From the NCBI GenBank assembly GCA_045586685.1, contig JAZNAU010000011.1:1-37854 (forward strand): DNA of 37,854 nucleotides, written 5' to 3'. The first letter of the stretch is position 1. Each line of letters opens with the position of its first letter. A program made the translations under genes and the position numbers. Origin of the DNA: Clostridia bacterium (GTDB lineage: Bacteria; Bacillota; Clostridia; HGM11514). Shown here piece by piece: positions 21,208-37,854 of this stretch. The notes beneath the pieces were generated by a model. The model was not told where the DNA came from, did not search any database, and saw only the letters and a program-made list of their open reading frames with translations.

Positions 21208-21484
21208 GCTTTTATCTCTCAAAAAAGCGATACTTATCCAAATTTTATGGCGTAGATGATATAGATGCCGTTCGGTTTTTTGGAGACTATCCTAAATTTT
21301 GTGTAAAGTCTGCACAAGACCTCCAGAATGATATGTAATAAAAATATCATTTTGGAGGTTTTAATTTTGCCAAAGTACAAATGAAGTCCCATCGAGAGGA
21401 CAGCAGAAAAGGAAAGAAACTTTGCGGTATTGAAAGGATATGAGTGCTTTTTTTGTTGAATTTTGAAAAAAGCGGTGTAAATCG

Positions 21485-21513
21485 TTGACAAAACATGTAA
21501 AAAGAGATATAAT
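21485..21513 (+). promoter_or_regulatory. Consensus sigma-A promoter
   Basis: TTGACA-17-TATAAT. Confidence 0.85.
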
Positions 21514-21585
21514 TTAAAGTGATTGTTTTCTTATATTTTTATTATACTAACAGAGTAGATAGAAATTTTTTGAATGGATGTGTAA

Positions 21586-22767
21586 GTGGGAATGGATTTG
21601 AAAGAGAAATTTTTAAAGCTATATCCTAAAGAAAAAGAAATTCAGATTGCTTTTTGCCCTTATCGGGTTTGCCCGATTGGTGCTCATTCGGACCATCAAT
21701 ACGGAATGGTATCGGGATTTGCTATTGATAAGGGAATTGAAATTGCCTATGTTCCTTCTGATAACGGCGTTGTAGAACTGCAAAGTATGAATTTTGAAGG
21801 GAAAGTTCAGTTTCATATTCACGATGTTCCTCCTGTCAAACAAAATGATTGGGCAGATTATTTGAGAGGAGCAACTTTGTTTTTAGCAAAAAGATTTGAA
21901 ATAAAAAAGGGAATTTATGCATTGATTCAAGGTTCCCTGCCCATAGGAGGATTGTCTTCTTCGGCAGCAGTCATTCTGGCATATTTAAGCGCTCTTTGTA
22001 AAGCAAACCAACTCATGCTGTCCAAGGGTCAGCTCATTCAATTTGCATTAGAGGCAGAAAACCGCTATGTGGGTGTATCCTGTGGTAAACTGGATCAATC
22101 CTGTGAAGTTTATAGTAAAAAAGATCATTTGTTATATTTAGACACCAAGGATGACAGTTTTGAACTGATTCCCAAGAATCCAAACATGAAGCCCTTTGAA
22201 ATTGCCATTTTTTTCAGTGGGGTAGAAAGAAGTCTGGCAAGCTCTGCATTTAATATGCGTGTGGATGAGCTGAAGGCAGCGTCTTATGCACTAAAAGCAT
22301 TTGCGGGAATGGAGTACGGAAAATTTGAAGACAGCAGATTACGAGAGGTGCCCCGTGAAGTGTTTGAGACATATAAGGACAAGCTGCCTGAAAACTGGAG
22401 AAAACGTGCCACTCATTTTTATACAGAATTTGAACGGGTGAACAAAGGGGCAGAGGCGTGGAGAAGAGGCGATATCGAGACGTTAGGAAAACTCTCTTTT
22501 GAAAGCGGTCATAGTAGTATTTACGATTATGAAACGGGTTCTCCGGAGCTAAAAGCCATTTATGAAATTATGCTGGAAACTGACGGTATTTACGGTGGCC
22601 GATTCAGCGGTGCAGGATTTAAGGGTTGCTGTATGGCATTGATTGACCCGTCATTTGAAGAACGTATTAAGAAAACGGTAACCAATCGTTATTTGAAACA
22701 ATTTCCTCAATATAAAGGGAAATTTTCCGTCCATTTCTGTCAGTCGGCAGACGGATGTGAAGTATAA
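21586..22767 (+). CDS. GHMP sugar kinase, galacturonokinase-like
   Basis: PYRVCPIGAHSDHQ, GGLSSSAA, GGRFSGAGFKGC. Confidence 0.8.
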   Translation: MGMDLKEKFLKLYPKEKEIQIAFCPYRVCPIGAHSDHQYGMVSGFAIDKGIEIAYVPSDNGVVELQSMNFEGKVQFHIHDVPPVKQNDWADYLRGATLFLAKRFEIKKGIYALIQGSLPIGGLSSSAAVILAYLSALCKANQLMLSKGQLIQFALEAENRYVGVSCGKLDQSCEVYSKKDHLLYLDTKDDSFELIPKNPNMKPFEIAIFFSGVERSLASSAFNMRVDELKAASYALKAFAGMEYGKFEDSRLREVPREVFETYKDKLPENWRKRATHFYTEFERVNKGAEAWRRGDIETLGKLSFESGHSSIYDYETGSPELKAIYEIMLETDGIYGGRFSGAGFKGCCMALIDPSFEERIKKTVTNRYLKQFPQYKGKFSVHFCQSADGCEV

Positions 22768-22779
22768 AGGAGAAAAAAC

Positions 22780-23523
22780 ATGGATTGTATTATTCTGGCG
22801 GCAGGCTATGCCACAAGACTGTATCCTTTAACTGAAAATATGCCAAAACCCTTGCTTAAAGTAAGGGATAAGACTATTTTGGATTGGTTGATTGATGATA
22901 TCAGTAAATCCGGTCGAGTGGATCGGTATATCGTGGTATCCAACCATAAGTTTGCCACCCATTTTGAACAGTGGGCGAAAGAAAAGAAAAGCCAGGTTCC
23001 CATTGTTGTATTAGATGATAAAACAGAAAGTAATGAAACCAGACTGGGTGCAGTTGCGGATATTTTGTTTGCGGTTAAAGAATTGGGGATAAAGGGCGAA
23101 ACCATGGTGATTGCAGGGGATAACGTGCTGGATTTTTCTCTTTGCCATTTCATCGAATATTTTGATAAAAAGAAACATTCTTGTATTATGCGGTATTTCG
23201 AGCCGGAATTAAAGCGGTGTCAATCCTCAGGTGTGGTGGAAATTGATGAGCAAGACAGGGTTCTTTCTATGGAAGAAAAACCTGCCAATCCGAAATCAAA
23301 TTGGCTTGCTCCTCCTTTTTATTTGTATACAGGAGAAGATATGGGAATGTTAGAGCAAGCCTTACAAGACGGTTGCGGAAAGGATGCTCCAGGAAGTTTT
23401 CCAGCATATCTGCATAAAAAACAGCCTTTGTATGCAATGGAAATGCCGGGAAAACGGTATGATATCGGAAACCTTGCAAGTTTTGAGGCGGTGCAAAAAT
23501 CATATCAGGGTATTGTGAAATAA
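22780..23523 (+). CDS. Sugar-1-phosphate nucleotidyltransferase
   Basis: ILAAGYATRLYPLT..PKPLL, AGDN, EEKP, YDIG. Confidence 0.9.
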   Translation: MDCIILAAGYATRLYPLTENMPKPLLKVRDKTILDWLIDDISKSGRVDRYIVVSNHKFATHFEQWAKEKKSQVPIVVLDDKTESNETRLGAVADILFAVKELGIKGETMVIAGDNVLDFSLCHFIEYFDKKKHSCIMRYFEPELKRCQSSGVVEIDEQDRVLSMEEKPANPKSNWLAPPFYLYTGEDMGMLEQALQDGCGKDAPGSFPAYLHKKQPLYAMEMPGKRYDIGNLASFEAVQKSYQGIVK

Positions 23524-23532
23524 AAGGAGAAC

Positions 23533-24543
23533 ATGATGACAGAGAAAGTTCTTGTAACCGGAGCTGCCGGTTTTATCGGATTTTATCTTTCCAAGCGTTT
23601 GCTGGAAGAGGGAAAAACGGTTGTAGGCTTGGATAATCTGAATGATTATTATGATGTCAATCTGAAAAATACTCGATTGGATTTATTAAAAAAATATCCG
23701 GATTTTCACTTTATTAAGGGCGATATTGCAGAGAAAGAAACGGTCGAGAAAGTATTTGCCAAACATCAGCCAAGCATTGTTGTGAATTTAGCAGCACAGG
23801 CAGGAGTACGGTATTCTATCACCAATCCCGATGCTTATATCAGCAGTAATCTGATTGGTTTTTTTCATATTTTAGAGGCGTGTCGTCATTTTGGCGTGGA
23901 ACACCTCGTATATGCATCTTCTTCATCTGTGTACGGTACCAATCAAAAAATTCCTTATTCTACAGAGGATAAAGCAGATTCGCCTGTTTCTTTATATGCA
24001 GCTACCAAGAAATCCAATGAGCTGATGGCACATTCTTATTCAAAATTATACAAGATACCCACTACCGGACTTCGGTTCTTTACGGTGTACGGACCTATGG
24101 GACGTCCCGATATGGCATATTTTGGGTTTACCAACAAGCTTGTAAAAGGGGAAAATATTCAGATTTTCAATTACGGAAACTGCAAGCGCGATTTTACATA
24201 CATTGATGATATTGTAACCGGCGTGATGAATGTGATGAAACAGCCTCCGCAAAAAAACGAAGACGGGGTAAAATATAAGGTTTACAATATTGGAAACAAC
24301 CAACCAGAAAATCTTCTGGAATTTGTGGATATTTTGCAGCAAGAGCTGATTAGGGCAGGGGTTCTTCCAAGTGATTATGATTTTGAATCTCATAAGGAAT
24401 TGGTTCCTATGCAACCGGGTGATGTAGAAATCACCTATGCTGATGTGAGGGATTTAATGAAGGATTTTGACTTTAAACCTTCCACTCCTTTACGAGAAGG
24501 ACTACGGAAATTTGCCATGTGGTACAAGGAATATTATAAGTAA
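23533..24543 (+). CDS. NAD-dependent epimerase, UDP-glucuronate 4-epimerase family
   Basis: GAAGFIG, NLAAQAGVRYS, YAATK, RFFTVYGPMGRPDMA. Confidence 0.88.
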   Translation: MMTEKVLVTGAAGFIGFYLSKRLLEEGKTVVGLDNLNDYYDVNLKNTRLDLLKKYPDFHFIKGDIAEKETVEKVFAKHQPSIVVNLAAQAGVRYSITNPDAYISSNLIGFFHILEACRHFGVEHLVYASSSSVYGTNQKIPYSTEDKADSPVSLYAATKKSNELMAHSYSKLYKIPTTGLRFFTVYGPMGRPDMAYFGFTNKLVKGENIQIFNYGNCKRDFTYIDDIVTGVMNVMKQPPQKNEDGVKYKVYNIGNNQPENLLEFVDILQQELIRAGVLPSDYDFESHKELVPMQPGDVEITYADVRDLMKDFDFKPSTPLREGLRKFAMWYKEYYK

Positions 24544-24554
24544 GAAACATAGAC

Positions 24555-24587
24555 AAACCCGCCATTTTTTGGCGGGTTTATTTTTTT
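24555..24587. terminator. Terminator between the epimerase and spoVT
   Basis: AAACCCGCCA-ttttt-TGGCGGGTTT then T-run. Confidence 0.85.
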
Positions 24588-25131
24588 AATCCTCCATTTG
24601 TTTTCCCAAAAAGGAAGCTGCGGTTTTTGCCAGCTTATCTTCTACATCGCTTATTTTTGGAATTTGATCTGTTCCGAAAAATACGACTGATCCGATAGAA
24701 TCGCCTTCTGAAATGATAGGCACTACCATACCTGCAACGTATTTATCCATTCCGTCAATCACATTTGTTTTATTCTGGTCATCGGGACGAAATGAAACTG
24801 CGTTTTTTTCACTTAAAATTTGTTCTAATTCGGGGGAAATACGCTTATCGTTTAATTCTCTTTTAGGAACACCGCCTACGGCAATGACTGTATCCTTATC
24901 TGTAATGCAAATGGAATGACCGCTCGTTTTTGCCAATGTATCGGCATACTGTGCCGCAAAAGTGCCCAATTCACCAATGGGAGAATATTTTTTAAAAATA
25001 ACTTCCCCATCTTTTTCGGTAAAAATTTCCAGCGGGTCCCCTTCACGGATTCTCATGGTTCTTCTAATTTCTTTTGGTATAACCACACGACCTAAGTCAT
25101 CTATACGACGCACAATTCCTGTTGCTCTCAT
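24586..25131 (-). CDS. spoVT: Stage V sporulation protein T
   Basis: MRATGIVRRIDDLGRVVIPKEIRRT AbrB domain plus GAF domain ending AASFLGKQME. Confidence 0.96.
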   Translation of the reverse strand: MRATGIVRRIDDLGRVVIPKEIRRTMRIREGDPLEIFTEKDGEVIFKKYSPIGELGTFAAQYADTLAKTSGHSICITDKDTVIAVGGVPKRELNDKRISPELEQILSEKNAVSFRPDDQNKTNVIDGMDKYVAGMVVPIISEGDSIGSVVFFGTDQIPKISDVEDKLAKTAASFLGKQMED

Positions 25132-25327
25132 AATAGAATTTCTCCTTTAAATTGAATTTACACCTTTATTGTTTACATGAAGGAAATTTTTATGTAAAGA
25201 AAAAATTGGAATCAATTTTATAATAAAGTTTAAATAAAAAGGATACTTGAGACCAAAATCTTACCTGTACTAATTGATGCTTTTTTTGCATATAGTGGAG
25301 TAAAGCGTCAAAGAGGGAGGCGGTGGA

Positions 25328-25459
25328 TTGAATACCCGAATAGAAGAAAGGACAATACAGCTTGCAGAATACATTTTAGAATACAAAGCAACAGTGAGAG
25401 ATACCGCAAAAAAGTTTGGTGTTTCTAAATCAACCGTACATACAGTGAGAGTGACATAG
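25328..25459 (+). pseudogene. spoIIID: spoIIID 5' fragment interrupted by an insertion (not in the ORF track)
   Basis: TTG start after GGGAGG; MNTRIEERTIQLAEYILEYKATVRDTAKKFGVSKSTVHT|VRVT*; match to SpoIIID stops after STVH; sigma-E-like CATATAGT at 25289-25296. Confidence 0.88.
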
Positions 25460-25625
25460 AAACTTTTTATATCGAAGTGGCGTAGTGGTGCACCTTTCGT
25501 GAATTTTACAAAATTTAAAATCTTTCGAAAACATCTGTATAAAAATGAACTATGTAAAAATCCTGAAAACCGCTTAAATAGTGGCTTTCAGGATTTTTTG
25601 TGTTTCAGTCTTGCTCTCTCTGTAT
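25454..25625 (+). repeat. Island left-end repeat, copy 1 (includes terminator-like hairpin)
   Basis: Ungapped match to 27459-27630 with 20 mismatches in 172 nt by hand count; weaker homology continues about 30 nt further. Confidence 0.93.
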
Positions 25626-25655
25626 TCGAATTTTAAGATGTATGCGAACGCATTT

Positions 25656-26063
25656 TTATTTGGTTTTTTCGGTTAAATACTCTTCAATCTTATTTACAAA
25701 AAATTCTGCTTCTTCAACTTGCTTTATAACATCTTCTTTTGGTACTACATAAAAATCTTCATAATCACTATCAGTACGCATATCAAAAGCAGATTTAATA
25801 ATATTTGACATTGCCTTATCAAATATCCCAGTTTTGATATAGTCCTTTTGAAAATTACTGATTACACCGGAATGCTTCTTGTAGTCCTGACCATCAAGCG
25901 CTAAAACTGCACGAGCAGCATGGAATATTGCATAATAAGAACGATTGGCTGCAGTATCAAACATTTCAAATTCAAGCGTTTTCTTCGCATCTTCCAAATC
26001 CGCTTTTGCTTTACTAAGGCGATATAGTGATAAATCAATCATTTCCTTGCTATACACTAACAT
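25656..26063 (-). CDS. HEPN domain protein
   Basis: AANRSYYAIFHAARA, KHSGVI, RTDSDY (RX4Y). Confidence 0.9.
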   Translation of the reverse strand: MLVYSKEMIDLSLYRLSKAKADLEDAKKTLEFEMFDTAANRSYYAIFHAARAVLALDGQDYKKHSGVISNFQKDYIKTGIFDKAMSNIIKSAFDMRTDSDYEDFYVVPKEDVIKQVEEAEFFVNKIEEYLTEKTK

Positions 26064-26391
26064 TCACGCCCTCTCTTATGACATTCATATAATACGGAAG
26101 AGCATTTCCGTACTTTTCAAAAGTGAACTTATCCTGCAATTTAACGGATAACAGAACATCATACTTTAAATCAATATCATTTGCAAAATCAGATATGGTG
26201 CGTCTGTACTTTGTAAGCTCGCTTTTTTCAAGGTCAACCAAAGCCATAACATCTATGTCTGACTCTGGATCATAATCCCCTCTTGCATAAGAACCATAAA
26301 GAATAACACTATCAAGTTTTTCGCCGAAAACTTTTCTTAGTTCCGTATAAGTTTCTTTTAATAACACATCAAGTGTATTTTTATTACACAT
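26050..26391 (-). CDS. Minimal nucleotidyltransferase (MNT)
   Basis: LYGSYARGDYDPESDIDV; AGGAGGTG RBS; overlaps HEPN. Confidence 0.92.
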   Translation of the reverse strand: MCNKNTLDVLLKETYTELRKVFGEKLDSVILYGSYARGDYDPESDIDVMALVDLEKSELTKYRRTISDFANDIDLKYDVLLSVKLQDKFTFEKYGNALPYYMNVIREGVNVSV

Positions 26392-26531
26392 AAGTTCACC
26401 TCCTAATCTATCTTATGCCTATATTTTAACACAATACATTAAAAAAATCAATATTTAATTAATATTTACATGTCGGAGCGTTGTCGATAATTGTGTCTTG
26501 CTGTAAAATTATAGCAGGAGGTGCATAAAAT

Positions 26532-27389
26532 ATGCAATTAAATTTAGAAAAAATTGTCTGGTTTAACAAACCGAAAAAACAAGAAAAACTTACTGCTACG
26601 TTGGGAAGTAATCAAAAACTGTTTTTGAGCGATGCCCTGCGAAATCAATTACCCGAAAATATTCAATTCGGGTTTGATGGCAGTTCGCGAACTCTGGTTA
26701 TTGCCGAATCAGAGAACCCAAGGGACAAAAAGTGTAAAAACGGAATGGTATTTGGCTTAGTAGATGAAATTCTGTCAACGGGAATGAAATTACCGGTCTG
26801 CTTTGAGTTTGAATATGATGGTGAAAACAAACTGTGGGCGGGTCAAGTTGTACTTAGAAAGAAAAAGCAAGAGTATGATTTAGAGCAAGTGCTGGCACTT
26901 TATAAACCTATTGCGGATAAATTGTTTGTTCAAATCGGGAAAACCACACCTAAAGAAGACCGACGGCAAATTATTGCTCTTGCAATTTGCGAAGCAGTGA
27001 AGGAATATACACCTGCATTCGGTGATTTTGAAAAGTTTATTACTAAGCGTGCCAAGGAGTCACTAAAAATAAAAAATCGTCATTATGTAAAATACAATAT
27101 GGATAAATCGATGGATGCATCTTTGAATGATGACAGTAACGACGGCTTTAATTTATATTCTGTAAATAGCTTTATTGATTCTGGTTATTTACGAGCCGAA
27201 AACAGAATTATGGAAGAACAATTCATAAAACAACTTAGCAAAAATGAGTCTGATGTTTTGACACTTTTAAAGAAAAAATTAACAATTTCTGAAATTGCAC
27301 AAAAATTAGAGATTTCAGAAGAAAAAGTTAAGTTTTTTGCAAAAACTGTCGCAATGAAACGAAAACAATTTTTCTCGCAAACCCTTTAA
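26532..27389 (+). CDS. Sigma70-like/HTH regulator with an extra N-terminal domain
   Basis: Region-2-like LYKPIA..EDRRQ..AVKEY..DFEKF; C-terminal LSKNESDVL..TISEIAQKLEIS HTH; AGGAGGTG RBS. Confidence 0.6.
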   Translation: MQLNLEKIVWFNKPKKQEKLTATLGSNQKLFLSDALRNQLPENIQFGFDGSSRTLVIAESENPRDKKCKNGMVFGLVDEILSTGMKLPVCFEFEYDGENKLWAGQVVLRKKKQEYDLEQVLALYKPIADKLFVQIGKTTPKEDRRQIIALAICEAVKEYTPAFGDFEKFITKRAKESLKIKNRHYVKYNMDKSMDASLNDDSNDGFNLYSVNSFIDSGYLRAENRIMEEQFIKQLSKNESDVLTLLKKKLTISEIAQKLEISEEKVKFFAKTVAMKRKQFFSQTL

Positions 27390-27458
27390 CAGTGCAGCTT
27401 TGCGACTTTCGACAAAAAACTTTCAGTTTCGACATCCCAGTATCATATAGTAGGAGCA

Positions 27459-27630
27459 ACATAGAAACTTTTTATATCGAAATGGCGTAATGACGCGCCT
27501 TTCGGGGATTTGACGAATTGTGGAATCTTTCGAAAACATCCGTATAAAAATGAACAATGCAAAAATCCTGAAAACCGCTTAAATAGTGGCTTTCGGGATT
27601 TTTTATGTTTCGGTCTTACTCTCTCTGTAT
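27459..27630 (+). repeat. Island left-end repeat, copy 2
   Basis: Lies 2005 bp downstream of copy 1. Confidence 0.93.
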
Positions 27631-27670
27631 GATAATTTTGAAATATGCGTGAATGTAATTTTGAGATGTG

Positions 27671-27749
27671 TTGTTTTAATTAATAAAATATGTTATACTA
27701 TAACTAACCAAGCACTGTCCGTTTTAACACCCACTTAGCTTGATATACT
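27671..27749 (+). promoter_or_regulatory. Tandem promoter with TGTCC box (putative WYL site)
   Basis: TTGTTT-17-TATACT, then AAGCACTGTCCGTTTTAACAC (identical at 32190), then TGaTATACT. Confidence 0.65.
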
Positions 27750-27791
27750 ATTTATAACAAAACTTGGTTTGGAAGCGAGGTATTCCTTATA

Positions 27792-28925
27792 ATGAAGAGA
27801 AAAGAAAAAGAATTTGATGTTTTTACCAACTACACATTTTCAGGAAAAGAATGGTCAGCTCCAACCTTGAAGTATGCTGCGGAAATCAAAAAAGAACTCG
27901 AAAAAATGCAGTTGGTTGGAAGGCAAATTAAAAAGATGAAAATGATTGGCTTAAGCTACTATCTAACGCGGGATTGGATTGAAAGTGCGGCGTATGATAT
28001 GCTTTCTCATTTGCCCGAGGACGAACGGCAGGATATGTCTAATTATAAAAACATTTCACCTGATATGGAATTTTCCAGATATTCAGAAATTGATGAACCT
28101 TTTTTAATAGAATTTGAAGACGGTGATGTTTTTGAAATTGATACTCCTCAAGATCCGTGTTATCGTTTTTCAATGAATTGCATTCCTTGGCATATAGATG
28201 CAGGGACAAATCTTCCTAACGCTGATGCGAATAAGCTTTTTTCTGTGTGTATCGGAAAGAAAATTGTTGAAATTGAAGTTTGCGAATATAGGGATGGATC
28301 TGAGGCTGAAAAAGGATATGTATCAAGAATTGTATTGTGGCTTGAAAATGATATAGGATTATGTATACATCCAGTATTTGACTATTGCAGAGTTTCATGC
28401 ATTAATAAAAACAATGAAGATGTATTGATTTCATTTAAAGAATTAAAAGACGCTTTGTTCAACTACGAAGATCTTCATACAGATGATACATTAGACTTTG
28501 AAGGAAGTCATACATTATCCTTTGATAAAAAAGGCGCAGAACATACGGAAACGCCATATATGTCGCTAATTCCTTCGGGAAAGGACACTGCTCTTCATAT
28601 TTCTGTCGATGATTTTGATTTGTTTGCGTGGAGTATGACTATTGTCCTTAAAGAAGTTTTTGATGAATATGGTGACTATAGCATAACTTACGAAAAGTGG
28701 AATGAGATTTTAAGCGAAGGAAGAAAGATTATCGATTTTAAAACATTTGATGATTTGTTTGACTATATTGTTGCACAATTTGATAATGGATTGTGGTATA
28801 TGAACAATCGTGGTGCAGAGTTCTGGAAGAATAAAGCTAAGTACGAAACGCAACTGTCGGATGTGACAAAATGGTCTGAATTAGCATTGAATGAAGATGA
28901 TGTTTTAAACATCTATGGGTTTTAG
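27792..28925 (+). CDS. Acidic hypothetical protein
   Basis: 377 aa ORF with GAGG RBS; no recognised motif. Confidence 0.75.
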   Translation: MKRKEKEFDVFTNYTFSGKEWSAPTLKYAAEIKKELEKMQLVGRQIKKMKMIGLSYYLTRDWIESAAYDMLSHLPEDERQDMSNYKNISPDMEFSRYSEIDEPFLIEFEDGDVFEIDTPQDPCYRFSMNCIPWHIDAGTNLPNADANKLFSVCIGKKIVEIEVCEYRDGSEAEKGYVSRIVLWLENDIGLCIHPVFDYCRVSCINKNNEDVLISFKELKDALFNYEDLHTDDTLDFEGSHTLSFDKKGAEHTETPYMSLIPSGKDTALHISVDDFDLFAWSMTIVLKEVFDEYGDYSITYEKWNEILSEGRKIIDFKTFDDLFDYIVAQFDNGLWYMNNRGAEFWKNKAKYETQLSDVTKWSELALNEDDVLNIYGF

Positions 28926-28934
28926 GAGGTTATC

Positions 28935-31900
28935 ATGAAACAGTATGATTTAATAAAACTTCTTGGTGATACATTTGCATTGGGTAATGTTGATGAGCTT
29001 GTTACCCATATGGCAGACGACTGTCAATATTTTTCAGAATATGCGAATAAAAGCTTTTTTTCTGCTGAAGAAATCGCAGAGAGGATGAAATATGTAGATT
29101 CACAATTGGATGAGACAAATTCATATTCTTACGAAATTGTAGAACTTGATACTATTACAAACTTCTCAGATGCAGAAAAACAGTTTGTCACGAATAAAAA
29201 AAACTCGTTGTGTAAATATGGAATGTTTTTATATCAATTTAGTAAGGCACATCCCGTTGCAATAGTTGTTGTAGTTATCAATCGCAAGAAAGAAATATGC
29301 AACATTACGCTTTCGAGGAATAAAACACTGTTTGATATTGAGTTTTATGGAGAAAAGATAGAAAAGGATTCTCCGTATGACACACCTGCCACTGTAAAGC
29401 CGTTAACTCGTCACGATCGTCAGGTCAAAGAATTACGAAAAGCCTTTTCTGGACAACATCTTGAAGAACAAGTATACACCGATGATGAAGTGTATATATG
29501 GCGGAAATCAGATGAATTCATAAAGAAATGGCTGGAAAACAATGGATACTATGTGCAGGAAACAGATGTTTTAGATGATTGCATTGGATATCTGTGTAAT
29601 CGAAATGGTTTTGAATATGCCGTATATATGTACGCATACGGAAAAGAGAGAACTACTCAACTTGATGGAGAATATTGCAGTAAGTTAAGAAATCATCCCT
29701 ATGCGAAAAACAGAACTATTTTAATGGTTTATCTTAGAGCAAAGCGCTTTATGATTGGTGATGAAGTAGCATATGGTGTTTATAGCTACGGCGATAATGA
29801 AGATAAAAATATAGAATTATGGCGTTTGGGTGAAGTGAATGGAAAGTCAATCATCGAATACTATCCAAGGAAAGAAATGATTGATCGCACATATGAACTT
29901 ATGTATGCTTTTAATCGTGCATCTCTTGATGTGTATGATGACATTGTTTGCAAAAGCAATCCGTCTTTTAATGGTTATGATTCACAGGGCATTACTTTCA
30001 ATAGTGCTTTCTACTATAATTTGCAGAGCTTACATAAAGAGTATGGCAATATGAAGATAGGCTATGTCAGGTATAATGATGTGGTGTATAGCGAGGTTCC
30101 GTATCTTGACAATTATGGATTTTTTGGTTTTACGGTAGATAACGAAAATCGTATTGCTCAGATTTATACCTGCCCGTTTGATGGTGGGGAAAGACCTGTT
30201 GCAGAATTCATAAAAACCGATATACGAGAAAAAGAAGACATGTATTCTCACATTCCAAAACTGGTTAATATAGAACCGATATTGCCAGTTATGTATGAGA
30301 GGTTTTCCTTAAAACTTCTGTTTGATAACGGGGAATGTAAAAAATATGTCCTTCCGGTTGACGTTAAAAACGAGAATGATGAAGTTGTTAAATATTGCGG
30401 TCACGTGTTTACGGATAAAATATGGAACTCAGCTGAAATGGTAGCTTCTGTAGAAAGTGAATACAGACATTACCCACCAAGAGGTCAGGCAATTAAGTTT
30501 AAGAATGGATTTTCTTTATCGGCTCATTATTGCTATCAGAACAGCAAGGACTATCAGGAACCAGTGATTTGCAATGACACAATTTACGAAGATGACGATA
30601 TAAAAATAAACAGACTTTGGAAATGGAAAGCAAATTCAGTATATAAAGATGAGGAAACTGGTGTTATCAAAGCATTGCTCAAGGGTGTTGCATTTAATTT
30701 TGAAGGTATTTCTACCTTTGCAACTTTTGAGGGTTCCCGTCTGACAAGTCTTGATTTTGATTATATAGACAGTTTCAAAGAAGGGTTGGCTGTAGTCGGA
30801 ATTCAAGGGCGCGGATATGGCTATATAGATGCATCGGGGAAAATTGCGATTCCTGCAATATATGAAAATGCCGATGAATTCAACGGTGGAAAGGCAAGGG
30901 TTAAGAAAGATGGCAAATGGTATTTTATAGATAAGTCTGGGAATGAAACTTCGATAGAAAGTACATTTGGTGAAAGGTATCAGGAAGTTGGTGAGTTCTG
31001 CGAGGGTTTGTGTAAGGTATCTACATTAAAACTTGGATTTATGGACTTGGCATATCATTCTGATTATTCAGAAATTGCCGGAACATGGGGATATGTTGAC
31101 GAGAATGGCACCGAGATTGTTTCTCCGCAATACATATATGCAAATGATTTTAATGACGGCATTGCAATTGTATGCAAAGGAAAATGGACTCGTGATGAAA
31201 AATGGAACAACAAGCATAATTCCGGTCGTTACTGGACGGAAGAAGAGCTTTGGGGTGCTATTGATAAAACCGGAAAAGAAGTTATTCCTTGTGTTTTTGA
31301 TGAAATCAAGGAGCTTTGGGATACTACGGATATATTTGTAGCACATTCCGGCGGATGGGAAAAAGGCAAATGGGGAGTTATCGATAAGAACGGCAAATGG
31401 GTTGTTGAACCTATTTTCGAAGATGTTGGATATGAATACAAAAATGGCTTATTTTCCTTTTATGCAGATGATAAATGGAACGATGATGATGTTCCGCTTG
31501 GTATCTATGATATTACACAGAAAAAAGTGTTGTTTGAACCCCGGTTCCTGGACGTGGACTTTATGGATGATGGCAACATCAAGGTCGAAGTTTACGATGA
31601 ATCTCTTGGCCGAAATATAGAGAAAATCATCAACCGAAATGGAGAAGAATTGTTCCCATCTGTCTATTCCTCTATTTATACGTGGAGAGAACCATACGAG
31701 GTTGTTATAAGAGATGAAAATGGTTCCAGACATGGTTTGATTGATAAAAAAGGTAATGTAATTCTTCCGTGTAAATATGATTTGCCGTGGAATGGGATTC
31801 ACTACGATAAAAAGCTTATGGTGTATGAATGTGATAAAAAACAGGGTCTTATTGATTTTGATGACAACATCGTTGTACCTGCCATATATCATGAGATACA

Positions 31901-32090
31901 CGGAGTAGACGAACCGCTATTGACAGTTCGTGATGGAGATAAAGATAACTATCTTGAGGGCTTGATAAAGCACAATGGAGATAAAGTTGTTGAGCCGAAA
32001 TATAAACGAATTTCGTGGTGTAACAATAATTATCTTTTATGTTCTTTTGACGGAGAATGTGAAGTTTTGCAATATGTAAAGAAGCATTAA
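28935..32090 (+). CDS. Large WG-repeat (KWG-type) protein
   Basis: Repeats such as FKEGLA..GYGYID.SG, WGYVDENG, WGAIDKTG, WGVIDKNG in the C-terminal half; AGGAGG RBS. Confidence 0.85.
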   Translation: MKQYDLIKLLGDTFALGNVDELVTHMADDCQYFSEYANKSFFSAEEIAERMKYVDSQLDETNSYSYEIVELDTITNFSDAEKQFVTNKKNSLCKYGMFLYQFSKAHPVAIVVVVINRKKEICNITLSRNKTLFDIEFYGEKIEKDSPYDTPATVKPLTRHDRQVKELRKAFSGQHLEEQVYTDDEVYIWRKSDEFIKKWLENNGYYVQETDVLDDCIGYLCNRNGFEYAVYMYAYGKERTTQLDGEYCSKLRNHPYAKNRTILMVYLRAKRFMIGDEVAYGVYSYGDNEDKNIELWRLGEVNGKSIIEYYPRKEMIDRTYELMYAFNRASLDVYDDIVCKSNPSFNGYDSQGITFNSAFYYNLQSLHKEYGNMKIGYVRYNDVVYSEVPYLDNYGFFGFTVDNENRIAQIYTCPFDGGERPVAEFIKTDIREKEDMYSHIPKLVNIEPILPVMYERFSLKLLFDNGECKKYVLPVDVKNENDEVVKYCGHVFTDKIWNSAEMVASVESEYRHYPPRGQAIKFKNGFSLSAHYCYQNSKDYQEPVICNDTIYEDDDIKINRLWKWKANSVYKDEETGVIKALLKGVAFNFEGISTFATFEGSRLTSLDFDYIDSFKEGLAVVGIQGRGYGYIDASGKIAIPAIYENADEFNGGKARVKKDGKWYFIDKSGNETSIESTFGERYQEVGEFCEGLCKVSTLKLGFMDLAYHSDYSEIAGTWGYVDENGTEIVSPQYIYANDFNDGIAIVCKGKWTRDEKWNNKHNSGRYWTEEELWGAIDKTGKEVIPCVFDEIKELWDTTDIFVAHSGGWEKGKWGVIDKNGKWVVEPIFEDVGYEYKNGLFSFYADDKWNDDDVPLGIYDITQKKVLFEPRFLDVDFMDDGNIKVEVYDESLGRNIEKIINRNGEELFPSVYSSIYTWREPYEVVIRDENGSRHGLIDKKGNVILPCKYDLPWNGIHYDKKLMVYECDKKQGLIDFDDNIVVPAIYHEIHGVDEPLLTVRDGDKDNYLEGLIKHNGDKVVEPKYKRISWCNNNYLLCSFDGECEVLQYVKKH

Positions 32091-32106
32091 CCACATAAGT
32101 GAAAAA

Positions 32107-32146
32107 GAAAAATCGGTCTGAAAGCTTACTTTTGGATCGGTTTTTC
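32107..32146 (+). terminator. Terminator after the WG-repeat gene
   Basis: GAAAAATCGGTCTGAAAG-ctta-CTTTGGATCGGTTTTTC. Confidence 0.7.
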
Positions 32147-32154
32147 AATATGTA

Positions 32155-32229
32155 TTGATTTGGTAAACGAATTATGTTATACTTTGATTAAGCACTGTCC
32201 GTTTTAACACTCACTCAATTTGTTAAAAT
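32155..32229 (+). promoter_or_regulatory. Tandem promoter with TGTCC box (putative WYL site)
   Basis: TTGATT-17-TATACT, AAGCACTGTCCGTTTTAACAC, TGtTAAAAT. Confidence 0.65.
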
Positions 32230-32273
32230 GAGTATAAAGAAAAGAAGAAATCTTTTTGGGAGGTTAAAACATT

Positions 32274-33092
32274 ATGAAAAAATATCCTATCGGCTTTAAT
32301 ACAAGAATAAACAAAGAACCTGATGTTAATGTTCCAATGGAAGTTTGCAAGGGTGTTATAGAACCTAAAAAGTCTATCGTTCAGGTATACTTCCCACACA
32401 GGGGTATGGGCTGGGCATACTACAACGATAGCTTTGACTTGAAGGTTGGCGACTTTGTTTATGTAGAAGGTAAGCTTGAAGGCTATCGTGGACAGGTTAC
32501 AGAAGTTAATTATTCCTTCAAGATTAAACTTTCTGACTACAAAAAGGTAATAGCTGTAATTGACACCAATGTTAAGGGTGATTTCTTCCTTGCAGGTTCG
32601 CATGTTGTTTCTTTTGACAGAAATGCAATTCCTTTCTCAAAAGTTCTTACCTGGTTTAAGGCGCCTGAGAGTGACGAAGAATATGTAAGCGGCAATGATG
32701 ACACAAATAGATTCTCGCTTGACGATTTGTCAAAGATGAAAATTTCTCACGATGCAGCTGATCGCGGACACGATTATTATATTGAAAACAGAGTTGGCTT
32801 TGTTGAGATAGACGGTACACGAGGTCATGCCATTGTAGAAGGCAGCGAAAACTACGAAATTGAATTTGATTACATAGATGGTGAAATCTCAAACCTTAAA
32901 TGCTCCTGCTTCTGCAGTGGTGCATGTAAGCACGAATTTGCCGCAATGCTCCAACTCAAGGAATCACTTGAACTCATAACCGAAAACTACGAAGACGAAT
33001 ACAACGGCTACTTTGCAATCATCAGCAAGGGTGTATTTATGAATACGGTTATGAATAAAAAGGTTTCCGGTAAAATCAGCCTGGGGGTATAA
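32274..33092 (+). CDS. SWIM zinc-finger protein
   Basis: RGHDYY, VEGSENYEI, CSCFCSGACKH. Confidence 0.85.
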   Translation: MKKYPIGFNTRINKEPDVNVPMEVCKGVIEPKKSIVQVYFPHRGMGWAYYNDSFDLKVGDFVYVEGKLEGYRGQVTEVNYSFKIKLSDYKKVIAVIDTNVKGDFFLAGSHVVSFDRNAIPFSKVLTWFKAPESDEEYVSGNDDTNRFSLDDLSKMKISHDAADRGHDYYIENRVGFVEIDGTRGHAIVEGSENYEIEFDYIDGEISNLKCSCFCSGACKHEFAAMLQLKESLELITENYEDEYNGYFAIISKGVFMNTVMNKKVSGKISLGV

Positions 33093-33094
33093 GC

Positions 33095-33187
33095 ATGGCT
33101 GGTAATAGGAAAAGCGGCTGTGGTTGTGGGTGTCTGTTTTGGATTATAATCATTTCAGTTTTGTTTGAAATTATTACTGAAGTATAA
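33095..33187 (+). CDS. 30-aa single-TM peptide (not in the ORF track)
   Basis: MAGNRKSGCGCGCLFWIIIISVLFEIITEV; GGGGGT RBS; fills the SWIM-Sel1 gap. Confidence 0.5.
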   Translation: MAGNRKSGCGCGCLFWIIIISVLFEIITEV

Positions 33188-33207
33188 TGTATGGAGGAAA
33201 GATAAAA

Positions 33208-34014
33208 ATGACACATGATGAAATACAGAGTAAAATTGGTTACATATTGGAAAAACTTAATAAAGAGGAATATCCAGAACTTTATGAAGTGCTGCTACAA
33301 TATGCTGATTATGACGATGTGGACGAGTGGATGTATGAATTGACAAAAGATATTTATGATGCAGACCAGACAAAAAAATTTCCTACTTGTGTATCTGAAT
33401 TTTTGATTTCAATATATAATTATCTAATCGGTCAACAGAACTATGATGTGGCGTGTGATATGGGTTCGTTGTATTACAAGGGAAGGTTTGGGAAAATCGA
33501 TTATAAAAAGGCAGTGGAATATTATACTTTGGCTGCCGATAATGGTTGCAGACAGGCTCAGGAAAATCTTGGGTATTGTTATTATTATGGTCGTGATGTC
33601 GAAGTGGATTACAAGAAAGCATTTCACTACTTTTCTCTTGGTGCATTTGACGGGCACATAAATTCCCTATACAAAATCGGTGATATGTACCGTAATGGAT
33701 ATTATGTAGATAAAAATCCTATTGAAGCATTCAGAATATATAAAAGATGTCTTGAAACTTTGACGGAAGAAGCTATTCCGCTTGTTGGTGCAGATGTAAT
33801 GCTTCGTATGGGTGATAGTTATTTTGAAGGCATCGGAACAGACATTAATTGGAATGAAGCATATCACTTTTATCGTAATGCAGAGGTTATGTATTATGAA
33901 CGCTTGATGAATGGCGATTTTATGATTAGCAAATGTTATGAAAAATCTATTCAAAGACAATCGCAAATCAGAGATAAGCGAAATGCAGAACTTCCCGATA
34001 ATGAATTGGGTTAA
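33208..34014 (+). CDS. Sel1-like repeat protein
   Basis: MGSLYYKG..DYKKAVEYY..AA, AQENLGYCYYYG, IGDMYRNG; GGAGG RBS before ATG 33208. Confidence 0.9.
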   Translation: MTHDEIQSKIGYILEKLNKEEYPELYEVLLQYADYDDVDEWMYELTKDIYDADQTKKFPTCVSEFLISIYNYLIGQQNYDVACDMGSLYYKGRFGKIDYKKAVEYYTLAADNGCRQAQENLGYCYYYGRDVEVDYKKAFHYFSLGAFDGHINSLYKIGDMYRNGYYVDKNPIEAFRIYKRCLETLTEEAIPLVGADVMLRMGDSYFEGIGTDINWNEAYHFYRNAEVMYYERLMNGDFMISKCYEKSIQRQSQIRDKRNAELPDNELG

Positions 34015-34029
34015 GGGGGAGATGAAAAA

Positions 34030-35010
34030 ATGAAACTATCACATCAAAAACTTAAAATGATGTATCTGGCAAAGATACTTATGGAACAGACTGATGAGGA
34101 ACACACAATAACTGTGCCTGAAATGATTGCCGAGCTTTCAAAGCTTGGCATTTCTGCCGAGCGCAAAAGTATTTATGATGACCTTGAATATTTGCAACTC
34201 TTTGGGCTTGATATCTGTTCAAACAAAACCCGTACAACCAACTATTATGTTGCAAGTCGTGATTTTGAATTGCCTGAATTAAAACTTCTAGTTGACAGTG
34301 TACAAGCATCAAAGTTTATCACTCGTAAAAAGAGTATGGAGCTTATTTCAAAGATTGAAAAGCTTACAAGCCACGAGAATGCTAAAAAACTTCAAAGACA
34401 GGTATTTATTACAAATCGTGTAAAGACAGTCAATGAGCAGATTTACTACAATGTTGATAAAATCCACGAGGCTATCGCGGCAAATAAGCAGATTACTTTT
34501 AAGTATTTCAACCTTGATGTGAATAAGAAAAAGGTGTACCGAAAAGATGGTGGATTATATACTGAATCACCTGTATCTCTCACCTGGGATGACGAGAACT
34601 ACTATCTCATTACATACAAAGAAAAGTATGACAGCTACACCCACTACCGTGTTGATAAAATGGAAATGATTGAACTTACCGAGGAGGACAGAGTTCTTTC
34701 AGACAAGCCCTTTGATTTGTCAAATTACTCAAAGACAATGTTCCAGATGTTCAGTGGCGAAGAAACTGATGTTTCTATTGAGTTTGATAATGAATTAGTT
34801 GGTGTTGTGTTTGACAGATTTGGTACGGACATCCCGATTGTCAAAAAGGATGAAGACCATTTCATCTGCCATGTTAAAGTTGCAGTCAGCCCGCACTTCT
34901 TATCGTGGATTATGAGCTTTGGCAAACAAGCAAAAATTATTTCTCCCGACTATGTGGTAGAGGAAATGTATCAACTCGCAAGAGATATAACTGAAATTTA
35001 TGAAAAATAG
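34030..35010 (+). CDS. WYL-domain transcriptional regulator (wHTH-WYL-WCX)
   Basis: ERKSIYDDL, SPVSLTWDDENYYL, HYRVDKM, WIMSFGKQAKIISP. Confidence 0.93.
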   Translation: MKLSHQKLKMMYLAKILMEQTDEEHTITVPEMIAELSKLGISAERKSIYDDLEYLQLFGLDICSNKTRTTNYYVASRDFELPELKLLVDSVQASKFITRKKSMELISKIEKLTSHENAKKLQRQVFITNRVKTVNEQIYYNVDKIHEAIAANKQITFKYFNLDVNKKKVYRKDGGLYTESPVSLTWDDENYYLITYKEKYDSYTHYRVDKMEMIELTEEDRVLSDKPFDLSNYSKTMFQMFSGEETDVSIEFDNELVGVVFDRFGTDIPIVKKDEDHFICHVKVAVSPHFLSWIMSFGKQAKIISPDYVVEEMYQLARDITEIYEK

Positions 35011-35026
35011 AAAAAATGGCTAATAA

Positions 35027-35061
35027 GTGTCCGTATTTATGGACACTCTCTTTTGTATAAT
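35027..35061 (+). promoter_or_regulatory. Palindromic box plus -10 upstream of the retron
   Basis: GTGTCC-N8-GGACAC then TATAAT at 35056. Confidence 0.7.
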
Positions 35062-35083
35062 ATATTTATAAGGTACTATATAA

Positions 35084-35260
35084 GTGGAACATTAGAGCAA
35101 GTCAATTAACATTGGCACCGTCAGCGAGTCGCTTACGGGATGCAAAATTATGAAGTATTCTCTTCGTTCATTCGAAACTGATTTCGCTGTATTTATGCCC
35201 ACTGACATGGGCTAAAAGATACAGCTACACAGTATCGATATTCACATTGTTTTGTTCCAC
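35084..35260 (+). ncRNA. Putative retron msr-msd RNA
   Basis: Terminal inverted repeat GTGGAACA/TGTTCCAC; stems GCACCGTcAGCG..CGCTtACGGgaTGC and GCTGTATTT..GCCCA..TGGGC..AGATACAGC; directly before the RT. Confidence 0.7.
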
Positions 35261-35284
35261 ACAAGAAGGGAGGAAAATTTTATA

Positions 35285-36217
35285 ATGATTGTATATAAGG
35301 AGTTTTCCTCCCTTGTTAATGATCTGGGATTTTCGGGTAAAGCATTATATAGTGTCAGCAATTATATTAACAAGCATTACCATTCTGTTAAAATACCAAA
35401 AGAAAATGGTGAATTCAGGCAGTTGTATGTTCCTGATAAATTTTTAAAATCCATTCAAAGAAGTATTAATGAAAAACTTTTATCTTTGGAAGAAATATCA
35501 CCATATGCTACAGCGTATCGCCCAGGAGGAAGCGCAAAAGTAAATGCACATCCCCATATAGGCAAACCGGTGTTGTTAAAACTTGATATCCGTCATTTCT
35601 TTGACCACTTAATTTATCCTGTTGTAAAAGAGAAAGCATTTCCTAAAAAAAGGTATTCTGAACAAAATCGAATTTTACTCTCGCTACTTTGCGTATATAT
35701 GGATTCTCTTCCTCAGGGGGCACCCACATCACCAACTATCTCAAATATCATTATGAGTGATTTTGATAATACAATTGGTCACTGGTGTTTGGACAATAAA
35801 ATCGCATACACGCGATATTGTGATGATATGACTTTTTCGGGGGACTTTGAACCAAGGCCTGTTATACAGTTCGTTAAGTCTGAACTCAAAAAACTCGGAT
35901 TGTTTTTAAATGACCAAAAAACGGTGGTTGTTCATAAAGGCCAAAAGCACTCCGTAACGGGTATTGTTGTTAACGAAAAACTTAGTGCACCTTATGAATA
36001 TAAGAAAAAGATTCGCCAGGAAATGTATTATTGCAAGAAGTTTGGCGTGAAGTCTCATCTTGATTCATGCCGCAACAATGAATTGCCCGAAAAATATGTT
36101 CTGGGACTTCTTGGCAGAATCAACTATGTTCTTTCAATAGAACCGAAAAATGAACAGATGCAAGAATATAAAACCTGGTTACAAAACAAATTGCAGAACG
36201 GAGAATTTTTATGGTAG
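35285..36217 (+). CDS. Retron-type reverse transcriptase
   Basis: NAHPH (region X), KLDIRHFF, LPQGAPTSP, YTRYCDD, VTG (region Y); 310 aa; GGGAGG RBS. Confidence 0.92.
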   Translation: MIVYKEFSSLVNDLGFSGKALYSVSNYINKHYHSVKIPKENGEFRQLYVPDKFLKSIQRSINEKLLSLEEISPYATAYRPGGSAKVNAHPHIGKPVLLKLDIRHFFDHLIYPVVKEKAFPKKRYSEQNRILLSLLCVYMDSLPQGAPTSPTISNIIMSDFDNTIGHWCLDNKIAYTRYCDDMTFSGDFEPRPVIQFVKSELKKLGLFLNDQKTVVVHKGQKHSVTGIVVNEKLSAPYEYKKKIRQEMYYCKKFGVKSHLDSCRNNELPEKYVLGLLGRINYVLSIEPKNEQMQEYKTWLQNKLQNGEFLW

Positions 36218-37320
36218 AAAGAAGTCAAGGTTCATTGGAGCTTACAGTCGATCAAATGGTAAAACAACTTTCAACGGCATATGTTTCCCTAATAAAATCA
36301 GACACACCACTAAAGAAATTTCCCTCTGTTATGCTTTGGGGGCCTCCCGGTGTTGGTAAATCACAAGGAATCAGGCAAGTTGCAAAAGAAATCGCAAACA
36401 GGACCGGTAAGAAGGTTGAAATAACAGATGTCAGACTTTTGCTTTTTAATCCAGTTGACTTAAGAGGTATTCCTACTGCAAATGAGGATAAAACACTGGC
36501 GATATGGCTTAAGCCTAAAATCTTTCAAATGGATGATAGATCCGATGTTATAAACATTTTGTTTCTTGATGAGATTTCTGCAGCTCCACAGTCTGTGCAG
36601 GCTGCAGCATATCAGATCACACTTGACAGAACTGTCGGGGAACACAGCCTTCCTGATAATTGTATCGTAATCGCCGCCGGAAACAGAGTGACAGACCGCA
36701 GCGTTACATACGCTATGCCGAAAGCATTGGCAAACAGACTTTGCCATATTGAGATTATAGGTGACAGCAAGAGTTGGCACGAATGGGCAATCACTGCCGG
36801 AGTGAACCGCATTGTGCTTGGGTTTTTAGACTATAATCCAAGTATGCTTATGCAGTTTGATGCCGCAACAGATGGTCTGGCATTTCCTACGCCGCGCTCT
36901 TGGGAAATGGTAAGTAATATTCTAAACCACGTTTCAGAAAATATTTTAGATGTATATCCCTTAATAACAGGATGTATTGGAGATGCTGCGGCATACGAGT
37001 TAAGATCCTGGAGTGAGGTTTATAGCAAAATTCCTGAGGTTGAGACTGTGTTTGAAGGGAAAACAGCGGGTATACCAACCCGTCCTGAAATCTTATATGC
37101 TCTTTCATCAAACATTGCTACATATGCCGTAGAACACCATTCTGAGGAAGAAATTAGAAACGCCGTTAGTTATGTGGTAAAACTTCCGCCTGAATTCAAA
37201 AATAGGATTTTCACTGATTTTCTGAAAGTAAAAGAGGCACATAAGGTATTGTCAAGAATTCGTGAGTATGATGATTGGTTTATCCGTTCCGGCAGATATT
37301 GGGAAGATTATGGCTTATGA
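36211..37320 (+). CDS. MoxR-like AAA+ ATPase
   Basis: GPPGVGKS, PVDLRGIP, LFLDEI, AAGNR, ALANRL, FPTPRSWE; overlaps the RT stop. Confidence 0.9.
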   Translation: MVERSQGSLELTVDQMVKQLSTAYVSLIKSDTPLKKFPSVMLWGPPGVGKSQGIRQVAKEIANRTGKKVEITDVRLLLFNPVDLRGIPTANEDKTLAIWLKPKIFQMDDRSDVINILFLDEISAAPQSVQAAAYQITLDRTVGEHSLPDNCIVIAAGNRVTDRSVTYAMPKALANRLCHIEIIGDSKSWHEWAITAGVNRIVLGFLDYNPSMLMQFDAATDGLAFPTPRSWEMVSNILNHVSENILDVYPLITGCIGDAAAYELRSWSEVYSKIPEVETVFEGKTAGIPTRPEILYALSSNIATYAVEHHSEEEIRNAVSYVVKLPPEFKNRIFTDFLKVKEAHKVLSRIREYDDWFIRSGRYWEDYGL

Positions 37321-37854
37321 TGACAAAACAAAGAAAAACACGATTAAAATACAAGATACAGGAATCCAGAGGACGTCTTATGGAATCACATCCGTTTTTT
37401 GCGCTCTTATTGATGTATTTGAAATTTGTTGCTGTTCCTGGTATGAAGAAAATGTCTACTAATGGAAGATGCATATACTTTTCGCCAGATTTTGTGGACA
37501 AACTGTATGGATACGAACTTGACTTTATTCTTTGTCACCAGATAATGCATATCATTTGTGGCGATATATGGCGGCCATTTGATCGCGAGGGTGATAATTA
37601 CCATTTTGCGTGTGATATACTGGCTAACATTTATCTTATAAATCATGGTTTTGAAAAAGATAGATATCCACACCTTGGAGAAGTACATCTTAGAGTGCCT
37701 GGTGAGAATGTTAACCCTGCTAATATGTCTGCTGAAGAAATATTTGAAATTTTGCCATACAATCTTTATATGTTTGATGACAGAATAAGAAACAAGTTTC
37801 TTATGGATAACGACCTTTGGTGGAGTCAAAAAGAAGACTTAGGCAATTCAGGTG
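37317..37854 (+). CDS. DUF2201-type metallopeptidase-like protein, 5' part (runs off the window; not in the ORF track)
   Basis: Hand translation MMTKQRK..RLMESHPFFALLLMYL..STNGRCIYFSPDF..FILCHQIMH..ACDILAN..MSAEEIF; ATGA overlap with the ATPase. Confidence 0.8.
   Translation, partial: MMTKQRKTRLKYKIQESRGRLMESHPFFALLLMYLKFVAVPGMKKMSTNGRCIYFSPDFVDKLYGYELDFILCHQIMHIICGDIWRPFDREGDNYHFACDILANIYLINHGFEKDRYPHLGEVHLRVPGENVNPANMSAEEIFEILPYNLYMFDDRIRNKFLMDNDLWWSQKEDLGNSG

Follow-up and report, generated by a model that had tools for sequence, protein, structure and literature searches.

A putative large serine recombinase-type element splits spoIIID in a Clostridia genome at a recurrently occupied site

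The contig JAZNAU010000011.1 of a Clostridia bacterium (assembly GCA_045586685.1; 37,854 nucleotides, analysed at its full length and referred to below as the window) carries the 5' half of the sporulation gene spoIIID, which breaks off at position 25442 and is followed by what appears to be an integrative element. The genes upstream of the junction are ordinary chromosomal and housekeeping genes, including those for an energy-coupling factor transporter, truA, rho, gdh, feoB, proB/proA, a sugar-nucleotide operon and spoVT. The latter, an intact host sporulation gene beside the insertion site (24586..25131, reverse strand), matches the equivalog TIGR02851 over positions 1–180 of 180 (251.5 bits, cut-off 235.9) and Pfam SpoVT_C (E=1.4e-43). 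The window is the entire contig, and only the first 12.4 kb of the element (25443–37854) are visible in it. As spoIIID is expressed in the mother cell (PMC517825) and its coding sequence breaks off at 25442, the insertion interrupts a sporulation gene of the mother cell.

The open reading frame (ORF) holding the 5' half (25328..25459, forward strand) begins with a TTG start codon, reads LNTRIEERTIQLAEYILEYKATVRDTAKKFGVSKSTVH and then switches to TVRVT and a TAG stop. Codons 1–38 (25328..25441), ending in SKSTVH, come from the host gene, and the tail with its stop codon (25442..25459, forward strand) is encoded by the element. The original prediction had recognised this fragment and the switch, but assigned 39 residues to SpoIIID followed by VRVT; because codon 39 spans the junction, the host-encoded residues number 38. 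Residues 4–39 of the ORF match positions 3–38 of 82 of the Pfam SpoIIID profile (PF12116, E=2.6e-15) and the ORF matches positions 3–38 of 80 of NCBIfam TIGR02844, with 51.6 bits for a cut-off of 111.5; neither match covers the C-terminal half of the family. Since the profile matches are partial and the TIGR02844 score is below its cut-off, the ORF is a gene fragment. The original prediction also stated that the conserved D-x-T-x-R-L second half was missing, and indeed no D-[LIVMA]-T-x-R-[LIVM] motif was found in the six frames of the window; the absence of the 3' half of spoIIID has a simple explanation, as the window is the entire contig.

The expression signals of the gene are still in place. 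A ribosome binding site (GGGAGG, 25315..25320, forward strand) lies 7 nucleotides 5' of the TTG codon and is identical in L001, an intact spoIIID locus of a Clostridia genome assembled from a metagenome. Further upstream, a candidate sigma-E-type promoter (25267..25296, forward strand) consists of GTACTAA (25267–25273), a 15-nucleotide spacer and the -10 element CATATAGT (25289–25296), which is kept in L001; the comparison is with the sigma-E consensus. Both the ribosome binding site and the -10 element reported in the original prediction are thus conserved in a relative. The 5' segment differs from L001 by six synonymous and two non-synonymous codons out of 38. Among the proteins compared, the closest intact SpoIIID, P0151, shares 97% identity across the N-terminal half and then continues with KDVTERLSRLN. 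The top two of 1,259 representatives matching the 43-amino-acid ORF, P0001 (383 amino acids) and P0002 (337 amino acids), contain 5–6 tandem stretches resembling the N-terminal helix-turn-helix (HTH) of SpoIIID.

The position of the junction was defined by comparison with loci from other genomes. In a blastn alignment, L001 matches 21426–25442 with 86.3% identity and ends at 25442. A scan of genome contigs using the C-terminal half of P0151 as query gave 80 loci among the matches listed; 16 of them align to the 5' half, with 15 alignments ending at 25442–25445, one at 25419 and none beyond. The 5' half with its ribosome binding site and -10 element is 94% identical to L001 over 25300–25442, compared with 86% for the wider flank. 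At the junction (~25.4 kb) the GC content drops from ~0.41 to ~0.35. The last host nucleotides belong to a short core, TACATA (25437..25442, forward strand), with CA (25439–25440) as the presumed crossover dinucleotide and the boundary between host and element at 25442|25443; the intact L001 reads ..CAGTACATA|AGGATGTGACAGAA.. across the same boundary. The same core is common to the left attachment site (attL) of the window, to a second site inside the element (see below), to the attL and attR junctions of another element, L067, and to the junction of L027. The end of L001 homology, the GC drop and the shared core bear out the claim that an insertion interrupts spoIIID, and they fix its exact position. 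Among the 80 loci listed, the core GTACATAA(G/A)G is found in 58 of the 76 that are intact. In these intact loci, over 30 nucleotides on either side of the His/Lys boundary, the third positions of the Val and His codons within GTACATAA are at least 80–90% conserved, compared with 30–60% for neighbouring third positions, in what is a query-biased sample.

Inside the element, the P' arm of attL (25441..25476, forward strand) ends with the outer motif GAAACTTTTTATATCGAA (25459–25476). This motif occurs exactly twice in the window, the second time at 27464–27481, and the attL arm is identical to the arm at 27446–27481 at 31 of 36 positions. It resembles the P' arm of L067 to a lesser extent (19/36, p ~0.017). 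The two arms belong to a longer repeat (25439–25657 and 27444–27662, 83% identity), each copy of which carries an attachment arm followed, ~115 nucleotides further in, by a hairpin. In copy A (25439..25657, forward strand) this is a bidirectional terminator hairpin at 25556–25598 (-25.5 kcal/mol, z = -6.4, none of 200 shuffles as stable), and copy B (27444..27662, forward strand) folds similarly at 27561–27603 (-23.7 kcal/mol, z = -5.6). Both hairpins were overlooked by a simple terminator scan and became visible by folding against shuffled sequences. As an Rfam scan of 24500–37854 gave no match at E up to 1, the conserved 219-nucleotide left end corresponds to no known RNA.

The original prediction spoke of a duplicated island-end sequence. 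The repeat is real, but its second copy is better read as part of an internal attP-like site (27408..27481, forward strand), with CA at its centre (27444–27445), a left arm carrying TTCGACAAAAAACTTTC (27408–27424) and a right arm carrying GAAACTTTTTATATCGAA (27464–27481). Its left arm matches the reverse complement of the P' arm at 19 of 35 positions (p ~0.006), a dyad symmetry at the same level as that between the P and P' arms of L067 (19/36, p 0.006). The shared TA-CA-TA core, the non-palindromic central dinucleotide and the imperfect inverted arms are those of an attachment site for a large serine recombinase (LSR). An origin of the left arm as a decayed piece of spoIIID was considered and rejected, the local alignment score being matched by 116 of 1000 shuffles; compared in register, the two sequences agree at 18 of 36 positions (p ~0.03). 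Read in this way, the visible part looks like a tandem or composite element, with attL, a 2,005-bp module, a P-P' site and a larger, related module in succession.

The 2,005-bp module, between attL and the internal attP-like site, is made of a HEPN/MNT pair and a sigma-like gene. The pair is encoded on the reverse strand by a HEPN gene (25656–26063, Pfam HEPN E=2.1e-21) and an MNT-type nucleotidyltransferase gene (26050–26391, NTP_transf_2 E=1.2e-10); the PADLOC match in the pair (25656..26391) is PDC-S09 (E=2.1e-26). The third gene (26532..27389, forward strand) encodes a 285-amino-acid sigma-70-like protein with a GerE-type HTH (Pfam GerE E=7.8e-6; PHROGs sigma factor families ~8e-6; NCBIfam sigma70-ECF below cut-off). 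The larger module is a defence island that spans at least 10.4 kb and continues past the contig end. Its cargo lies at 27792..37854, all on the forward strand: a 377-amino-acid protein without family (27792–28925), a WG-repeat protein of 1051 amino acids (28935–32090), a 272-amino-acid protein (32274–33092), a Pfam Sel1-repeat protein (33187–34014), a WYL regulator (34030–35010, PADLOC WYL E=7.2e-30), a retron-type reverse transcriptase (RT; 35252–36217), an AAA ATPase whose gene overlaps that of the RT (36211–37320), and a DUF2201_N protein (37275–37853) that is open at its 3' end and cut by the contig end. The RT matches PADLOC RT_Ec107-like with E=2.3e-127 and the NCBIfam retron St85 family with 215 bits, below the cut-off of 235; Rfam detected no msr/msd RNA near it (35252–37853). 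The defence cargo of the original prediction is supported, in that the genes carried are defence-like. A noncoding repeat of ~100 nucleotides (71–77% identity) lies at 27659–27762 and 32143–32242, 5' of the genes starting at 27792 and 32274, and may be a promoter or leader shared by two cargo operons. Far from the element, near the contig start, a 52-nucleotide unit occurs twice (126–177 and 264–315, 98% identical, 138 nucleotides apart) with a hairpin AAAAAGAGTTGTC..GACAACTCTTTTT.

No phage structural or lysis family was found in the visible element, the PHROGs matches being limited to the sigma factor, RT, ATPase, an HNH-like family and one unknown family. Compared with 50,697 phage records, the attachment region had no match and the cargo only a 5% stretch to Bacillus phage G; a comparison with plasmids gave no match. 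Lacking structural families and any meaningful phage DNA match, the visible 12.4 kb do not qualify as a prophage.

The codon at which spoIIID is broken in the window is also a break point in many relatives. Among the best 150 of 1,259 representatives matching the 43-amino-acid ORF, 88 sequences diverge at the residue following STVH, 55 continue with K and seven are without the motif. The tails that follow STVH are related across representatives (TVVTK, MVVIK, TVRSICVG and TVRVT, among others), and tails identical or similar to that of the window (TVRVT, TERVT, TVGVT, TDRVT...) are found on N-terminal halves from other assemblies. All 48 near-length relatives of the 43-amino-acid ORF are N-terminal halves broken at that codon. 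Reciprocally, 27 of 116 further relatives of the C-terminal half have no N-terminal half and start with a peptide of the P-arm type, ..PFQIVTT(V/I)HK. One such protein, P0305, is named SpoIIID of Roseburia hominis but consists of the 3' half fused to an element-encoded peptide, a trap for annotation. No difference separates the N-terminal halves of the split clusters (P0184, P0185, P0187 and P0183) from those of intact clusters (P0154, P0159 and P0155), a pattern that points to presence/absence polymorphism within species. At the level of loci, four of the 80 listed have a 3' half without a 5' half ahead, split at the same codon, beside the 76 intact ones. Judging by these comparisons, use of the spoIIID site would seem to be widespread, to involve several lineages of elements and to be polymorphic within species.

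The recombinase comes into view in three of these four loci (L027, L049 and L067) and in one further record (L081). In L027 and L067, the end of a 551–552-amino-acid protein carrying the domains Resolvase, Recombinase and Zn_ribbon_recom coincides exactly with the junction to the spoIIID 3' half; L049 starts with the C-terminus of a protein of the Resolvase, Recombinase and Zn_ribbon type that ends at the same junction; and in L081 (MT838016.1, from a phage collection) a recombinase 57% identical to that of L067 abuts the 3' half. The element of L067 is complete, with the 5' half and its tail TVVIK, a DapB-like gene, the recombinase gene and the 3' half. L062 provides the empty counterpart to this occupied site; the insert measures 4.1 kb, and the shared core is 9 bp long. 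Joining the two halves of L067 yields in frame the L062 protein, with one non-synonymous and six synonymous codon changes out of 88; excision of the L067 element would restore the reading frame. The original prediction suggested looking downstream for a 3' half and a large serine recombinase; neither was found in the 12.4 kb of element in the window, but an LSR gene abuts the 3' half at the same site in L027, L049, L067 and L081, and in the window element the contig ends first.

The best NCBIfam matches of the L067 recombinase are CcrB (152 bits) and CcrC (125 bits), so far below the cut-offs of 900 bits that the protein is not a Ccr. Its TAA stop codon, like that of L027, is formed across the attachment core (L067:9990–10002 and L027:9990–10002), and in an excised circle the recombinase frame would continue into the other arm, altering the C-terminus. 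Upstream of both recombinase genes lies a small ORF (L067:7762–8010, L027:5960–6316) with the shared motif RKLNY..HNPNS.E.TA..L..ANAGKVER (tblastn 3.9e-12) and no NCBIfam family; its product is a candidate directionality factor or regulator. Inspection by eye of the region upstream of the L067 recombinase revealed no convincing sigma-E or sigma-K promoter. MT838016.1, labelled 'Bacteriophage sp.', was considered as a possible excised circle and rejected: the scaffold is linear, and its LSR gene directly adjoins the spoIIID 3' half, which makes it another integrated copy. The label is an annotation trap and the record a chromosomal fragment.

An island of another kind occupies the site in L035 (5379–10150). 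It encodes AbiLi/AbiLii and an ATPase-Toprim protein, is bounded by ACACAAG repeats and has no recombinase inside. Because a spoIIID 3' half comes with the island, the gene is kept intact (5379–5654), and the original 3' half is displaced downstream, at ~10001.

Taken together, these results lead us to propose that the window holds the left junction (attL) of a site-specific integrative element inserted in spoIIID, within the codons of the conserved SKSTVH|KDVTERL and at a TA-CA-TA core. This stretch would act as a recurrent attB for a family of LSR elements in Clostridia whose recombinase gene lies at the far end, its last codons running into the junction with the spoIIID 3' half. For the window element, the LSR gene and the missing gene half would then be on another contig. 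Recombination between attL and attR by the LSR and a directionality factor would produce an in-frame spoIIID, and could take place in the mother cell, the spore keeping the element, as with skin, SPbeta and gin. We are confident of an LSR-type insertion at a recurrent attB. The scheme as a whole, with its composite structure and its excision, is more modestly favoured. The developmental excision of the window element is put forward tentatively, as slightly more apt to prove wrong than right: the mother-cell timing derives from the analogy with skin, SPbeta, vfbin, vrin and gin, from halves that are open wherever they are visible, and from the intact spoVT. For the window element, excision during sporulation is a plausible guess.

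Several observations weigh against this proposal. No recombinase was detected in 25443–37854, either by a Pfam scan or by tblastn of the L067 recombinase over the window, and the small ORF found beside the recombinase genes of L067 and L027 has no homologue in the visible 12.4 kb. The 3' half expected from the genome of the window is not among the 80 loci listed, nor was it found among short proteins at least 95% identical to the expected C-terminal half. What ties the P' type of the window (TVRVT..KLFISKW) to an LSR is solely the similarity of its arm. In the linked elements, the LSR gene contains the P arm, whereas the internal P-like arm of the window comes after the sigma-like gene. A second copy of spoIIID elsewhere in the genome is possible. 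The synonymous and non-synonymous changes counted above cannot be assigned to the period after insertion.

A simpler view is that spoIIID serves as a safe harbour without developmental role. Its conserved stretch would offer a widely available attB in hosts that no longer need spoIIID, sporulate poorly or not at all, or use another copy, and any excision would serve transfer instead of sporulation. Many split alleles come from metagenome-assembled genomes of gut Lachnospiraceae or Oscillospiraceae, Roseburia hominis has an annotated 3' half (P0305), and a core conserved over the 76 intact loci fits a broad-host attB, all of which speaks for this view and to the detriment of ours; the four split species representatives among the 80 listed are likewise what a polymorphic, dispensable insertion would give. 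However, open frames are kept in both halves, together with the start codon and the ribosome binding site, wherever these are visible, spoVT beside them is intact, and the halves of L067 differ from L062 by six synonymous changes to one non-synonymous. Ruminiclostridium cellulolyticum, for which a split spoIIID has been reported, is a spore-former. Characterised elements in mother-cell sporulation genes are all excised during sporulation (PMC4191935, PMC5595907, PMC6957869). We regard a purely safe-harbour insertion as rather unlikely, while giving it more weight than the two alternatives that follow.

The element could also be a decayed relic that has lost its recombinase or from which the 3' half of spoIIID has been deleted, leaving the gene permanently dead in this genome. 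The 12.4 kb without recombinase, including a 2-kb module that has none at all, and the recombinase-less island of L035 at the same site would agree with such a history. Yet the recombinase is at the far end in L027, L049, L067 and L081, an end that is off-contig here; the 5' half, ribosome binding site and -10 element are better preserved relative to L001 than the wider flank; and both att-like sites retain core and arms, making decay improbable. An assembly chimera, in which host DNA was joined to unrelated DNA at a short repeat, might be suspected for a sequence that probably stems from a metagenome assembly and for a contig that ends inside a gene. But the join is the same TACATA core as in independent elements of other assemblies, STVH is followed elsewhere by an identical or a similar tail (TVRVT in P0006 and P0011, TERVT in P0183), and, being only 83% identical, the copies of the left-end repeat are not a collapse artefact; a chimera is accordingly most improbable.

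Under the proposed LSR insertion, the attB sits in the most conserved codons of spoIIID, and for a new group of LSRs the site provides attB and attP as a defined pair. It is also an example from nature of defence cargo lodged in a gene needed only by a terminally differentiating cell. If the excision is developmental, it must precede the action of SpoIIID, a change to the established order of events, where SpoIIID helps to bring about skin excision; there would be a DNA-rearrangement checkpoint one step before skin, and a germline-safe home for defence islands. More broadly, spoIIID might be a major, so far undescribed hot spot for diverse LSR elements of gut and environmental Clostridia, with tandem stacking, anti-phage cargo (retron, HEPN/MNT, AbiL) and, in sporulating hosts, a sigma-E-controlled exit from the mother-cell chromosome before the late programme, L035 being a sister solution with its own 3' half and so no need of excision. 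This wider picture is speculative, and we would not yet back it over its negation. As a lead, the window points to a target of sporulation-linked mobile elements that is widespread and has been little described.

DNA rearrangements are known to rebuild the sporulation genes sigK, spsM, spoVFB, spoVR and gerE. Galperin et al. (bioRxiv 10.1101/2022.02.25.481979) have in addition reported skin-like elements that interrupt cotJC in Laceyella sacchari and spoIIID in Ruminiclostridium cellulolyticum. The gene interrupted in R. cellulolyticum is thus the same as in the window; neither breadth nor attachment site is given in that paper. In the literature searched, this was the only statement on spoIIID, and no description of the attachment site, recombinase family or breadth of spoIIID elements was found.

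Skin, in sigK of B. subtilis and C. difficile (recombinases SpoIVCA and CD1231), is likewise a mobile element inside the gene of a mother-cell sporulation regulator, the cargo of such elements varies from one to another, and the same position is described for spoIVCA (bioRxiv 10.1101/2022.02.25.481979). The target differs, since spoIIID acts before sigK, and skin has a recombinase and undergoes excision, while the window element is known from 12.4 kb of sequence without recombinase. In B. subtilis, SpoIIID helps to express spoIVCA (PMC6957869); because the target here is spoIIID itself, excision of the window element could not depend on SpoIIID. The gin element in gerE of B. cereus (GirC/GirX) is, like the window element, a non-phage intervening element in the gene of a small mother-cell HTH regulator, and the cargo of both is of defence type, restriction-modification for gin and retron plus HEPN/MNT for the window (PMC5595907). 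Gin has three serine recombinases and a 9-bp overlap, compared with no visible recombinase and the shared core TACATA in the window. SPbeta in spsM (SprA/SprB) illustrates how an LSR and a directionality factor rebuild a mother-cell gene by excision (PMC4191935), but it is an active prophage, whereas the visible part of the window element is without structural phage family. The composite islands of the staphylococcal cassette chromosome (SCC) at orfX/rlmH, mobilised by Ccr, offer a working model for the tandem order in the window, where one module stands between attL and the internal att-like site and another follows. Tandem arrays of the SCC type arise by accretion, a mechanism that we retain here as a lead only. 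Compared with all these systems, the interruption of spoIIID by a skin-like element is already on record; what seems to be new is its breadth, along with the several types of arm, the tandem organisation and the presence of defence cargo.
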